A stretch of DNA of 64,000 bases from Octopus vulgaris (GCA_951406725.2 OX597835.1:35650001-35714000), one strand, 5' to 3'; positions 511 through 58,640 are shown, counted from the first letter of the stretch. Notes: generated by a model from the sequence alone, not told the origin. Translations and numbers: made by a program.

Positions 511-698
511 CGCCATCATAGATCGTTAGCCACTACACACATTTTTACTCTCCTTGTTTTTTCTGTGTCCCTTTCTGTAGGAGAGCATAGGCTCGAAACG
601 TTAAAGACTCTTTCTATTCCTGAGCGTTATACTAATACATCTGTTTGTTTTGTACACCACCTGTTTTCGTCTTTTGTTTGTTTTCGTAAACTCTCCCT
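511..698 (+). mobile_element. PLE pseudo-LTR fragment, family A
   Basis: Homologous to 45168-45395 (-) and 57180-57372 (+); all carry a hammerhead-like motif. PLE assignment is inferred from the HHR type. Confidence 0.65.
571..606 (+). ncRNA. Minimal type I hammerhead motif, degenerate core
   Basis: cttt CTGTAGG A GAGC-ATAG-GCTC GAAAC GTT aaag: stem I cttt/aaag, 4-bp stem II, palindromic ACGT stem III; core differs from CUGANGA at A6 and A9. Confidence 0.55.
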
Positions 699-1744
699 AT
701 ATATATATAGATAGATAAGGACACTACAGAGTTCGCCTACAGTTTACCTATTGCATTACATACAGACGACTCCTATCCACTCTCCCAGATTAGATTTGGA
801 GCGCCTTGATTATTACGAAACATATGTTCACTCAACCGTGTTGGTCTTCTTTTTAGACGCAAAATATACTCTCACGTGACACGCAAGGGCGTGACGGGAA
901 ACGTACAAAAGGTTATAAACTTAATCATTCTCCAGAAACACTTGACAGAAAACATTCAGAGCATTGATTGTTTGAACTTGTTCACTCAAATACGCCAGCC
1001 TGAACTTACGACGCCAAACATTGTTACTTAATAGTAACACACAGACGTAGCGAGGGCTCTACAAAATTTCTATGACCAGTCATATGACTATCTTCTACCA
1101 ATCAAATACTATCCAAAGCATATAATAATTTGAGCCATGAGCTTCCTATAACAACAGGGCAAACTTCAAACACTATTCCGCAGCAAGACAACTGCTCATA
1201 AGCCACGCCTTTCTATTTGAACTTTTGAAAATCACTGCACGTGTAAATAATTATAAATGATAATATACTATTATATTAGTAATATATAACAACTATTCTC
1301 TATTATTTCAAGTTATTGATATAATAAAAATAATGAAAAATTGTTTAAAGAGATTAACAAAAAAAATGTTCTTTATTTATTTAGTTTATTAGAAGGAGAA
1401 TTCCGAAATAAATATGAAGAGAAACCTAAAAAAGATGTTCTTTACTTACTTAATTCATCGGAGGGAGAATTCCGTAATGAACATGAAGATAAATTTAGAG
1501 CTATAATAACTACAATCTATATTATTACCCCATAGATATAGAGTTAGGCTATTGTAATGGATATCAAAATATTATCAGTTTTTCAGAAGTAACCAGATTT
1601 GAAGTTTCTTGAATACGGATTATTCACAGTAACTAACAAGTAAATGTACCAATAATCGTATATTATAGAATTATGTTCTCAAACATTATCTGCAGTAAAT
1701 TATCTGCTGCAGAATTGTTTCCGGAATTTAGCGCACCAGAGCTC

Positions 1745-1792
1745 AGGCATTTGAAAATAACCCCAATGTAATCGGTGAAACTAAGCATGTCT
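1745..1792 (+). ncRNA. Degenerate type I hammerhead motif (U3:A8 core)
   Basis: aggcat TTGAAAA TA ACC..GGT GAAAC TA AGC atgtct: 6-bp stem I with one GU; cleavage triplet is mutated (AGC). Confidence 0.4.
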
Positions 1793-1849
1793 CAGGTTTT
1801 ATATAGAAAACTAGTGTTTAGTTTTACAAATTATATTGAATGTGGAACG

Positions 1850-1919
1850 ATCGTACTGATGAGTCTACGGACGAAGAATTACGTAATATATTCGGTAATA
1901 GAAGAAACCGGTATACGAT
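1850..1919 (+). ncRNA. Type I hammerhead ribozyme motif, canonical CUGAUGA box
   Basis: atcgta CTGATGA g-tcta...taga-a GAAAC CG GTA tacgat: perfect 6-bp stem I, palindromic ACCGGT stem III, GUA triplet; the 10.1-11.1 pair is a G/A mismatch. Confidence 0.75.
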
Positions 1920-4900
1920 TAATTCTTGATTTTTTGTAATTTTCATGTCTTGCCCGACTATGTTCTGGTGTTCTCTGAATTTTCTCTGAAGAGCATTCTT
2001 TTTTTGTAGTTAGATCGTATGTGATCTTCTTCTAGCATATGGCTATCCATCTAGTGGATTTTTTAGCCCTAAATATACACATGTATTGAAATTTTTTCTG
2101 ATTTTTCAGATTTTTTATATGCTAGGCTACTCGTTTTAAATTGATATTAATTAAATTAATGTTCAATTTATCTCCCTCGTTATTTAAATATATATATATA
2201 TATATATATATATATATATATATATATATATATATAATATTACGAAGAGAAGATCGATGTTGGACGTGGCGAAAAGCACGCATATATCTAACATATGTAC
2301 AAAGATATCTATCACTGTGGCATATGTATCTAGATTTTATACTCTTGTATACATAGATACACCCACACTCAACTCCCTCACAAACACAAAGCCCCACACA
2401 CGCACACACACACACACACACACACTCATATAGACATGTTTTTAGTGTATATATATATATATATATATATATATATATATATATGTATATATATATATCC
2501 AATTAAATATTTACACCCACACCTACACTCACTCACACATGTATCTATTAATGTATATATGCATGTGTCTATATGTGTGTTTATTCATGTGTGTGTGTGT
2601 GTGTGCATAAACAAGGTATATGTTTATATCCATATAGAGTATACACACGCGTGTGTGATTATGTATGTATGCGCATATACAACACTGTATATTACGTACA
2701 ATCATGTTAGTTTCCAGTTTACTTTGAAAAGTTTCATCACCTTTTTTATATGCACGAAAAGAAAACTATATGTATGTTTGTATATATATATATATATATA
2801 TATATATATATATGTACATACAAAAACACACGCTTATATATGTATATATATATATATATATATATATATATATATATATATATATATATAGATGTATATG
2901 CTGATATGTATATGGATATATATATATGCATGTACACCGGTTCCGTTTCCTCCCCTGTTTCCTGTAACGTATTTCATCCTAACACGTCCTCAGATTTACA
3001 AACAGATAATACACCAAACAAAGATATATAAATACTTATTCAGAAATCAGCCAAATACAAAATTACAAATATACAAATATTTAGTGTGTGTGTCTTTGCA
3101 TGCATGTGTGTGCTTCCCTGTGTGTGAGTGTGTGTCTGCATGCATATATTTGTGAATATATATATATATATATATATGTATATACATACATATATATATA
3201 TATGTATGTATATACATACATATATGTATATATATATATATGTGTGTGTGTATATATATATATACATACATACATACATATATATAAATATAAATCTGTG
3301 TGTGTATTGAAAAGCATATGAATATAGTTATACATATATACACATATATGTTTGTATATATGTATATATATATACAAATATACATACATATATATGTATA
3401 TATTAATAAATATATCGACAAATAAACGTGAGTATGTATATACTTACATACATACACATACAAATATATATACGTATATATATATATATATTAATGAATA
3501 TATAAACAATGTGTGAGTATATATATATATATATACTTATATAGTTACAAACACAGACACACACACACACACACACATATATACACTGAAGATGAGAAAG
3601 AGAGTAAGACCTATAGATAGAAAGATAGATAGATGACGTTTGTAGAAAATCATATAGACATGAAATGTTAGTTGGTCGTATATTATCATACACTAAAATA
3701 AAAAATGGAAAATTGAACGTAAAAAAAAATGGCGAAATATTTTTGTTGGCGTTATTATGTCTTGCCTGTGCCGTTAAAAAGTTTTGCTTGCAGCTCTTCG
3801 TGTGTGACGTGACTAAAGGCGAATCTTGAGAACAGGAAGAAACATTTACTCCGGTTATTGCTTTTGATTCTTGTTTTTTGAAAAATCCCTGCTTCTTCTT
3901 TCACTTCCTATCTCGCTCCAACCTCACACATAAACGCAGACACATCCTCACATACCCCCATATATAAGCCCTTTAATATATACATACATACATATATAAA
4001 TATATATATATATATACATACATACATATATAAATATATATATATATATATATATATATATATATATATATATATATATATATATATATATATATAAAGC
4101 ATGCATATATGCATATGTATATATGTATACATGCATATATATATATACATATATATATATATGCATATATATATATATATATATATATATACATACATAC
4201 ACATTTACATTTACACATTGTAGCATCACATATATTAAAATTGCGTTGTGTGTTTATGTATATATATTCACATATATATGTGCATATATATTTATATATA
4301 TTTATATATATATGCACATATATATATTTATATATATATATATATATATATATATATATATATATATATATAATAAATATTAGGGAATAAATCCAAACTT
4401 ACGATCGTAGTGTGATATTAATTATATTTTTTAAATAATTTTGTTATATATTTAAATAATATAAATTAAATAATCTTATGTATTGGCTTAAGTTTTTCAT
4501 TGTTTGATTTGCCTAATAGTGGTTTTGTCTCTAATTTAATATAATATATATATATATATATAAAATCTTAGTACATATATAGACGTATACGTATAGTTAA
4601 ATATTTGTTTGTGTGTGTGTGTGTGGTGTGTACCTGTGTGTGTATGCGTGTGTGTTTGAATGTACTGTTTTGAATGAAAATTGGGCGGAAGAAAGATTGA
4701 AAGGACAAATGAGAAGGAGGTAAGCTGTAATTTGAACTCTGAACAGCTTGTAACAACATCAAATCTAAAATGTTACCAACATCCGAAGCAAACAATAGCT
4801 CAAATAATAGCTCAAATAATAATTACAACAACAACAACGATAATAACAATAATAACTGATTGGAAGTGTTAGCTTGTATGAATGATTGGAAGTGTTAGCA

Positions 4901-5179
4901 TATATAACTGATTGGAAGTGGTTTCATGTACATTGTTTTGTTTTGGTATAAAAGATGGGTTACAATAAATATTTTGTTCAGTACCACAGACTTGCTTGTC
5001 AGTTGGTTGACCTTAAAGCGGTTGAGCAGGTTCCTTAGGGTTTTCTTGTAAACACCGACAGAACGATCCAGGATAATCGACCAGATATAGGAGGGAATAA
5101 AATATTTGTAGGTGGCTTGTTCTTTGCAAATAATTATGTTTCTGCATAGAACATCATCTAAAATTTGCTTCGCTTCCGT

Positions 5180-57372: not shown

Positions 57373-57625
57373 AGTTGAATGATATTTCGACGGCTAGCCT
57401 GTCTTCGTCGAGTTCAAAATGAAAAGTGATAAAAATTCAAAATTAGAGAAATTCAAATCCAAGATATGAACGAGAGCAACCAGTGTTCACACGCTGTTGG
57501 AATGACATCATCAGTCTTCAAATTTCAATTTCATAACAGGCAAAAAGAAAAAGAAGAGAAACAGAGGAAAAAAGAAAGAAAAGGGAGAAGAAGAAGAATA
57601 TTTGATCAAAGAGTTTTGTGTAATT

Positions 57626-57936
57626 AACACTTATCGCCAAGCTAATATGGCAGTAAATAAATATAGGACGAAAGCTGCCGTTGATTACCTCCAAGAGGCC
57701 ATCGCTAGAGGAGATGGTCAGCAGCGATGCCTGCTGAGTTTGGCTACTCTTCATTGATAAAGGGCAAATACCCTGAAACATGTCTGCGGATGCTTGACCA
57801 CCAAGGGGAAGCGGCTGACCTCCCCTGTTCGAATGAATACATGTTTGTGTGTCATATAGCTAGCCTCTTGGAACTAATCAACGGCAGCGTTCGTCTTATA
57901 TTTATGGACTGCTGCATTAGCTTGGCGATAACTGTT
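57626..57936. repeat. 74-bp inverted repeat enclosing a hammerhead
   Basis: Arms 57626-57699 and 57863-57936. Confidence 0.85.
57748..57790 (+). ncRNA. Type I hammerhead ribozyme motif, U3:A8 compensatory core
   Basis: tcttca TTGATAA AGGG-CAAATA-CCCT GAAAC AT GTC tgcgga: palindromic ACATGT stem III, GUC triplet, stem I 5/6. Confidence 0.72.
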
Positions 57937-58252
57937 GATATCCAGTATCACTGTCGTATTCTCCTTTAGGGAGACTTAGAAATAATATTTCTAGTTTTGT
58001 GTAAAGTTGATAAAATCCTTCTGTCATTTTATTCATTCCTCCAGGGCGTGATGTTAATAACCCACAAACGTATTTCTCCTGATGCATTTTGCTGACTAGA
58101 ATTGTAGCATACACACACAGACACACACAGACACACACACACAGCCACACACACACACACACACAAACACATATATACATACATACATACATATATATAT
58201 ATATATATATATATATATATACATATATATATATATATATATATATATACAC

Positions 58253-58394
58253 AACGGGCTTCTTTCAATTTTCGTCTACCAAATCCACTCACAAGGCTTT
58301 GGTCGGCCCGAGGCTATAGTAGAAGACACTTGCCCAGGGTGCCACGCAGTGGGACTGAACCCGGAACCATGCGGTCTGTAAGCAAGCTACTTAC
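58253..58394 (-). mobile_element. SINE family B 5' half
   Basis: High identity to the family head. Confidence 0.85.
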
Positions 58395-58397
58395 TTA

Positions 58398-58640
58398 AAA
58401 ATCCGTGATCATGGAATGAAAAATAATTTTACAAAACGAAAGAATATCCAATAATATAGCCCGGATGTGGCTAGAATCTGTATTCTTGCAATATTCTTTT
58501 GTTTTGTAAATTTACTTCTCATCTCATGATTACGGTCTTTTATGATGACGTCATGTTCTCATTCTTCTATTAAAAAGATGCGTAAGAAACAGCTGTTATG
58601 AGCTGGCAATCATCCATCGTCCGTTATTATTCATTTGATT
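58398..58640 (+). mobile_element. Fold-back PLE fragment with degenerate HHR at 58537-58602
   Basis: Inverted arms 58398-58447 and 58491-58541, then ATGATGA...GAAAC AGCT GTT atgag. Confidence 0.45.

Follow-up and report, generated by a model that had tools for sequence, protein, structure and literature searches.

A 64,000-nucleotide stretch of Octopus vulgaris DNA (GCA_951406725.2 OX597835.1:35650001-35714000, in our coordinates G000:C22:35650001-35714000; hereafter the window) lies in a genome of 2.8 Gb in 227 contigs and is very rich in microsatellites. A first-pass annotation had proposed that it carries about 22 hammerhead ribozyme motifs from several families of Penelope-like elements (PLEs). 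Twenty-one of the 22 listed sites are almost certainly hammerhead-type motif copies in the pseudo-long terminal repeats (pLTRs) of about 11 PLE families, a confidence that applies to the identity of the motifs as hammerheads of PLE terminal repeats from many families. The genome's biggest families multiplied with an altered catalytic core while the rest of the motif was kept. Our best explanation, to which we assign a probability of about 0.65, is that the sites are PLE terminal-repeat hammerheads, mostly in decayed short insertions, whose source elements likely use weak, protein-assisted ribozymes despite carrying U4C or A6U cores.

Evidence that the motifs are genuine came from descriptor searches and from homology. 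A type I descriptor with the strict CUGANGA core matched the window twice, against a mean of 0 in 20 local dinucleotide shuffles; allowing up to one core mismatch gave 6 matches against 0.15, and permitting a long stem II gave 9 against 0.35, a motif density far above chance. With a relaxed score that also accepted the U3-A8 core, 11 window sites scored 7 or more, compared with 0.47 in 15 shuffles. Scored site by site, 10 of the 22 exceeded the usual level of a shuffled window (expected 0.47 or less), 10 were unremarkable alone (expected 1 to 15), and 20148 and 39333 gave no reading. Most of the sites were rescued by homology, in that other genomic copies of their repeat families bear the motif. 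Such copies were found for families A (571, 45259 and 57266), B (19989 and 20148), C (22589, 27164 and 56532), D (22431, 34133, 34201 and 42318), E (39079 and 39333) and G (16836), and for the single sites 1850, 16622, 20825, 28368, 57748 and 58523. For 28368, the repeat family is evident from 499 first-look candidates, and the core, in canonical form, is visible in one 73% homolog only. Reversed-pattern controls returned 0 in every pattern search.

Helices I and II are paired and helix III is palindromic, with family-specific sequences, as expected of minimal type I motifs and as the first-pass annotation had described. Helix I occurs as CUUU/AAAG, GUUU/AAAC, CUGU/ACAG, CAUC/GAUG, CUACG/CGUAG, AUCGUA/UACGAU or CUCAU/AUGAG, and helix III as ACGU, ACCGGU, ACAUGU or ACAGCUGU. 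The U3-A8 core UUGANAA, not CUGANGA, is found at 16622, 39079, 39333 and 57748. Of the original list, 1745 failed: it is a chance look-alike within the 1850 repeat, and GAAA at its position is absent in five of five homologs. The box placed at 58537 is not conserved and has to be moved to 58523, which reads CUGAUGA in three of five homologs. No match in the window reached the Rfam gathering score for Hammerhead_1 (RF00163), and 6 of 73 candidates scored genome-wide did so; the motifs therefore look unannotated. The Rfam scan by E-value was discarded, the 150 matches listed of its 480 being microsatellite look-alikes of microRNA models. The motif copies and associated features are collected in Table 1. 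One high-scoring U3-A8 motif with a long loop II, at 48816-48890 (+), had not been listed by the first-pass annotation; it has no homolog in the sampled DNA and may be due to chance.

Table 1. Hammerhead motif copies and associated PLE features, in window coordinates.
Feature	Position	Strand	Remarks
Family A motif	571..606	+	Family core CUGUNGA (A6U); copy also A9G, decayed
Rejected site	1745..1800	+	Upstream portion of the 1850 repeat; GAAA unconserved in homologs
Canonical CUGAUGA motif	1850..1919	+	Stem I of 6 bp, helix III ACCGGU, loop II long; no pair at 10.1-11.1; nearly intact
Extra canonical-core motif, absent from first list	6088..6132	-	3' side continues into a different repeat
U3-A8 core family	16622..16658	+	78 exact matches in the genome; this copy has a broken stem II; family has U-U closing pair
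Family G motif	16836..16923	+	Long stem II; family core canonical; A6U is private decay
Second family B pLTR copy	18752..18948	-	Motif mostly deleted
PLE open reading frame (ORF) N-terminal stub between family B pLTRs	19165..19503	-	58% identical to the intact L051 ORF over its residues 99-189
Family B motif	19989..20023	-	U4C family core, C15.2U
Inverted family B copy	20148..20182	+	Heavily decayed
Canonical-core motif	20825..20917	+	Stem I of 6 bp; loop II long; stem II weakly closed
Family D motif	22431..22468	+	Decayed: C3U atop family U4C, stem II broken
Family C motif	22589..22625	+	Canonical CUGACGA core with an extra A; helix III is ACGU; the window's best example of a textbook minimal hammerhead
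5'-truncated PLE copy	23549..27312	+	Linker plus remnant of the GIY-YIG endonuclease (23551-24320), followed by a CA-rich 3' region and the pLTR; end-to-end about 83% with L055 and L065
Family C motif	27164..27198	+	U4C family core, otherwise intact
Repeat-family motif	28368..28448	-	C3G, likely private decay
Family D motif	34133..34170	-	U4C; a single mismatch in each of stems I and III; forms an inverted pair with 34201
Family D inverted copy	34201..34238	+	Core CUAACGA, decayed
Family E motif	39079..39114	-	U3-A8 core, damaged stems; inverted partner of 39333
Family E inverted copy	39334..39369	+	Heavily decayed (listed site 39333)
Family D motif	42318..42355	-	U4C; stems I and II damaged
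Family A motif	45259..45294	-	A6U; G10.1C damage
Family C motif	56532..56566	-	U4C, otherwise intact
Older family A copy	57266..57301	+	A6U, C15.2U
U3-A8 core family	57750..57788	+	389 exact matches in the genome; helix III is ACAUGU; nearly intact (listed site 57748)
Motif with box at 58523	58518..58602	+	Family core canonical; G5C in copy

The extent of the core variants became apparent from genome-wide pattern searches. Among 36,058 exact matches to motifs with the GAGC/GCUC type of stem II, 20,841 were A6U, 9,630 were U4C and 5,587 were canonical, with 0 in the controls; seven patterns together gave at least 39,600 exact matches. State counts were taken from the first 100 listed matches of each pattern, which represent the first places of the largest contigs only. 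A core-blind A-type pattern (19,824 matches) had U at position 6 in 96 of these 100 by eye, with N7 as about 39 U, 25 A, 23 C and 13 G, and the other core positions 97-100% fixed. The C-type pattern (13,182 matches) read CCG in 71, CUG in 23, CCA in 3 and something else in 3, and the unrelated family D (1,126 matches) read CCG, corresponding to U4C, in 78, both again by eye. The U3-A8 core was found as UUGAAAA in 99 of those listed for family E (1,982 matches), and U3-A8 in 91 of those listed for the 57748 family. A core of CUGANGA or UUGANAA with GAAA and UH is thus not the majority state of family A (A6U) or of families B, C and D (U4C), and it is found in families E and G, in those of 1850, 16622, 20825, 57748 and 58523, and in about a quarter of C-type copies. 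The type I layout proposed by the first-pass annotation holds, and its CUGANGA-like box overlooked these family-wide variants.

U4C is not confined to old copies, being present in both pLTRs of young family C elements with an intact ORF. Position 4 of the hammerhead is U in both pLTRs of one such element (L066) and C in two near-identical ones (L051 and L059), with 8-10 substitutions in 2,600 bases of ORF. CpG decay was rejected as the sole source of canonical C-type copies, given the excess of CUG over CCA among the first 100 listed (23 vs 3) and the CUG in both L066 pLTRs; for the canonical copies of family D, CpG decay suffices (11 vs 6 among the first 100 listed of 1,126). Assignment of A6U cores to 39079 and 39333 was rejected, their family core being UUGAAAA, as was assignment of 16836 to an A6U family, its family core being canonical.

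The host elements have the features of endonuclease-positive (EN+) PLEs: a frame encoding reverse transcriptase (RT) and a GIY-YIG endonuclease, direct pLTRs, partial tandems and inverted 5'-truncated copies. In full-length family C elements, arranged in 6.2-kb tandems, the motif lies in both pLTRs flanking the RT and GIY-YIG frame. The intact ORF spans 1,008-1,009 codons with DKG, GxxMG, YIDD, CxxC and GQT motifs, and its first Met lies about 445 bases downstream of the hammerhead. Six family C copies are 0-10 substitutions apart across 2,600 bases. Two features of the Neptune type were found, namely a CX2-5CxxC linker (C-x4-C-x2-C, which in the L051 frame ends at residues 882-885; Nematis has the same linker) and insertion at microsatellites, with family C copies terminating in (TA)n. 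In each family the motif has a fixed location near the 3' end of the repeat, and in families A and C it lies downstream of the endonuclease on the same strand. Family A motifs occur 680-1,010 bases 3' of endonuclease remnants at independent loci, with homologous intervening sequence, and for one A6U lineage beside such a remnant, 39 of the 39 other scored copies are at 96-98% identity. Linked ORF evidence consists of endonuclease remnants only for family A, an N-terminal stub and an endonuclease remnant for family B, and one adjacent ORF match for family E. Families D and G and the single-site families are probably also PLEs, judging by motif architecture and inverted pairs.

Within the window, 23549-27312 is a single 5'-truncated copy of family C type, of which the CA-rich stretch is a part. 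Its endonuclease remnant, for which Pfam returned nothing, was recognized by tblastn to the intact ORF, and genome-wide the interval 23634-24317 yielded 16,124 first-look candidates, of which some lie within open frames of about 1,008 codons. The long CA/CATA-rich tract at 24470-27000, within the PLE 3' region, recurs in other copies, and the element thereby spreads simple-repeat DNA. Family B is represented at 18752-20261 by a pLTR, an ORF stub, a second pLTR and an inverted pLTR.

Evidence for constraint on the motif came from comparing copies of the same family. Outside N7, H17 and position 4 or 6, the cores and stems of different subfamilies have diverged much less than their flanks. For family A, 49 copies were found via their 3' flank, with 6 rows that were truncated or unalignable over the motif dropped. 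Their cores had 1 shared and 30 private changes and their flanks 61 and 290 (Fisher p 0.04), corresponding to 0.67 changes per column in the core and 3.51 in the flanks when CpG sites, gappy columns and homopolymer runs were removed; for core plus stems against flanks, p was 6e-6. Nine core columns had 0 shared changes, N7 had 5 and H17 had 2, and neither G8 nor G12 had any. H17 was G in 1 of 49 family A copies and in 2 of 76 copies of families B and C, and the tree test of B and C likewise found the core spared. In 30 young family A copies, used as a neutral control, core and flank changed alike (0.60 and 0.52 changes per column). Constraint across subfamilies combined with flank-rate change in young copies indicates that insertions decay neutrally and that source lineages retained the motif after A6U.

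In the explanation we favor, a tandem PLE transcript would unite two motifs, whose palindromic helix III halves would pair, and slow cleavage after H17, probably aided by the element's own protein, would trim the RNA. The ribozyme retained by source elements would be weak and protein-assisted and would tolerate U4C, perhaps also A6U. Lone motifs would arise by the tens of thousands from few active sources because the 3' pLTR nearly always survives 5' truncation; having no dimer partner, they would likely be inert. Precedents exist for parts of this scheme in the literature: cleavage by a lizard PLE hammerhead requires the PLE protein (PMC11167929), and U4C lowers activity in vitro and still permits viroid infectivity (PMC3088659). 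The chance that the U4C families have retained cleavage seems about even, and for the A6U family it seems lower, so that retained cleavage there is a tentative proposal. Slightly more doubtful is the broader suggestion that A6U, the core of the genome's commonest hammerhead, is a working natural variant, probably helped by protein, even though mutagenesis rates the change as disabling, with PLEs having been selected for attenuated ribozymes.

Several observations weigh against this explanation. On the protein side, Pfam matches in the intact ORF, to RVT_1 (E 0.0013) and then GIY-YIG (E 0.015), both fell below the cut-off. Unconstrained folding of seven window motifs, as monomers and as dimers, failed to yield a clear hammerhead structure, and stem I of the youngest autonomous family contains a U-U mismatch. 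Interpretation of the tree tests is complicated by 3 of the 49 family A rows coming from a canonical-core search, by partial circularity in the B and C test, where some rows were chosen via stem II and GAAA, and by a young B and C control that is not clean, its core changing less than its flank (0 vs 0.25 changes per column). Family A has a conserved loop II too, and this conservation is as compatible with protein binding as it is with catalysis. From published work, every single mutant of the CUGA turn has low activity (PMC9901934), hammerhead mutants do not impair insertion in vitro, and the available part of the same insertion study reports no RNA-seq reads ending at the cut site (PMC11167929).

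Some of these points favor the main rival, in which the A6U and U4C motifs are catalytically dead and persist as a folded signal that the PLE protein uses for binding or positioning, the families spreading without cleavage. The low activity of core mutants, the insertion that works without cleavage and the conserved loop II all fit such a signal; moreover, variant families exceed canonical ones five to one, and Naiad PLEs reach high copy numbers without hammerheads (10.1101/2021.04.23.441226). Loop II conservation and the stem I mismatch leave room for a non-catalytic role. However, the variation at N7 and H17, with H17 avoiding G and with G8 and G12 free of shared change, is the pattern of a cleavage rule, and we regard a dead fold as unlikely.

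The first-pass annotation had inferred that the genome may hold a very large population of ribozymes or retrozymes able to cut or circularize read-through transcripts. The size of the population is borne out by tens of thousands of exact copies, with recognizable ones likely numbering about 10^5. ACGU palindromes are common to families A to C, which makes pairing between different copies conceivable, and a genuine retrozyme-like array exists elsewhere in the genome. That array (L277:2300-4560; G000:C1:20000001-20010000) is a tandem of period 353-359 bases with five copies on the + strand and two on the - strand, each a canonical type I hammerhead with a 6-bp helix I, a 4-bp helix II and ACCGGU, resembling non-LTR retrozymes; it has no match in the window. 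The claim of a working population fared less well. By eye, against the usual state of each family, about six window copies are undamaged or nearly so, namely 22589, 1850, 20825 and 57748, which have textbook or U3-A8 cores, and 27164 and 56532, which have their family's U4C core; 19989 and 57266 are borderline, and the remaining copies have private core or stem changes, so that about 15 of the 21 genuine copies bear private damage. In young family A copies the motif decays as fast as its flanks, and the window contains no short head-to-tail array with hammerheads of the retrozyme type. Three motif pairs are inverted (20019/20148, 34166/34205 and 39111/39337), and a single transcript of such a pair would hold a motif and its antisense, which would anneal together, rather than a dimer partner. 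Published minimal hammerheads of metazoan PLE pLTRs have no activity as monomers and low activity as dimers (PMC4209133). With few undamaged copies and no retrozyme array, the window gives no support to a large active population that cuts host RNA, and we consider such a population very improbable. The weakest alternative, chance matches in AT-rich, repeat-rich DNA, draws on the 12 sites that do not beat shuffles singly or give no reading, on 1745 and on the empty Rfam result, and apart from 1745 it is refuted by the excess over shuffles, the placement of 21 of 22 sites in repeat families, the empty reversed-pattern controls and stems that switch sequence between families yet still pair.

The window is unexceptional. 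Sites scoring 7 or more number 11 per 64 kb in the window, 11.9 in the neighboring 140 kb and 5.55 in a 600-kb genome sample of 60 stretches of 10 kb; its density therefore equals that of the chromosome neighborhood and is about twice the genome average. A homology-based density (24 per 64 kb in the window vs 3.8 in the sample) was set aside because its queries came from the window itself. Seven of the 52 sampled matches derive from the retrozyme-like array, and extrapolation from the sample without them gives roughly 2 x 10^5 recognizable motifs genome-wide. Other repeats in the window include a fragment of a Pif1 helicase 2B domain at 14308-14796 (-; E 1.3e-14), probably from a Helitron-like element, and two frames with no Pfam match that by eye resemble a C-terminal LINE RT fragment (34780-35490, +) and a Tc1/mariner transposase fragment (62621-63139, -).

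Judging by its title, a 2017 paper by Lunse, Weinberg and Breaker reportedly deals with motifs of this kind, namely small PLE hammerheads cleaving as dimers. Among the closest parallels are the minimal hammerheads of Cervera and De la Pena 2014 (PMC4209133), which share the pLTR location, a helix I of 3-6 bp, an ACGU or longer palindromic helix III, the extra nucleotide after A9 seen here in families A-C, many families per genome with mainly solo copies, and U3-A8 covariant families. They differ in that the alignment rows in the available part of that study read CUGANGA or UUGANAA/UUGAAGA, with none U4C or A6U, and in copy number (reported as about 2,000 to 9,000 per genome, while exact matches here number at least 39,600); its descriptor fixed the core, so these variants would have been undetectable. 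Poseidon PAc of Anolis (PMC11167929) has an RT with a C-terminal GIY-YIG domain, a pLTR hammerhead and a tandem organization; its ORF starts inside the motif, unlike the downstream first Met found here, and the core variants described here are natural and family-wide. Natural core variants have been reported (PMC3088659), including U3-A8, U4C in a viroid, A6C in a phage (under 0.1 per minute) and U10.1-U11.1, which is paralleled by the U-U closing pair of the 16622 family. Those were rare single cases, with no occurrence of A6U in the portion available, whereas here U4C and A6U are the majority in tens of thousands of copies. Non-LTR retrozymes (PMC7229834; 10.64898/2026.07.22.740005) share type I hammerheads and a relation to PLE pLTRs, and they form short head-to-tail arrays of canonical motifs, found at L277 and not in the window. 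Family-wide U4C or A6U cores were not found in the literature searched, although Lunse 2017, Arkhipova 2017 and supplement file 1 of PMC4209133 could already report them. CCGA had 0 occurrences in the papers text-searched, a search for octopus hammerhead ribozymes turned up nothing on such motifs, judged by listing, a paper listed in a search on A6U dealt with twister ribozymes, and neither ribozyme nor hammerhead occurs in the part available of a 2026 octopus repeat annotation (PMC13282606). Motifs of this type, their abundance in invertebrates and U3-A8 were already known; within the literature searched, the family-wide U4C and A6U cores are new.

A dense census of hammerhead motifs is expected in a PLE-rich genome. 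The purpose of these hammerheads is a standing question: they are nearly universal in PLEs, but their in vitro activity is weak and in one assay insertion proceeded without them. The octopus genome supplies natural matched canonical, U4C and A6U motifs in sister subfamilies, and with matched versions such as L051, L059 and L066 the choice between catalysis and a binding signal becomes directly testable. Censuses with a fixed core can undercount PLE hammerhead motifs several-fold, and if A6U does work, standard descriptors would miss most PLE hammerheads in such genomes.

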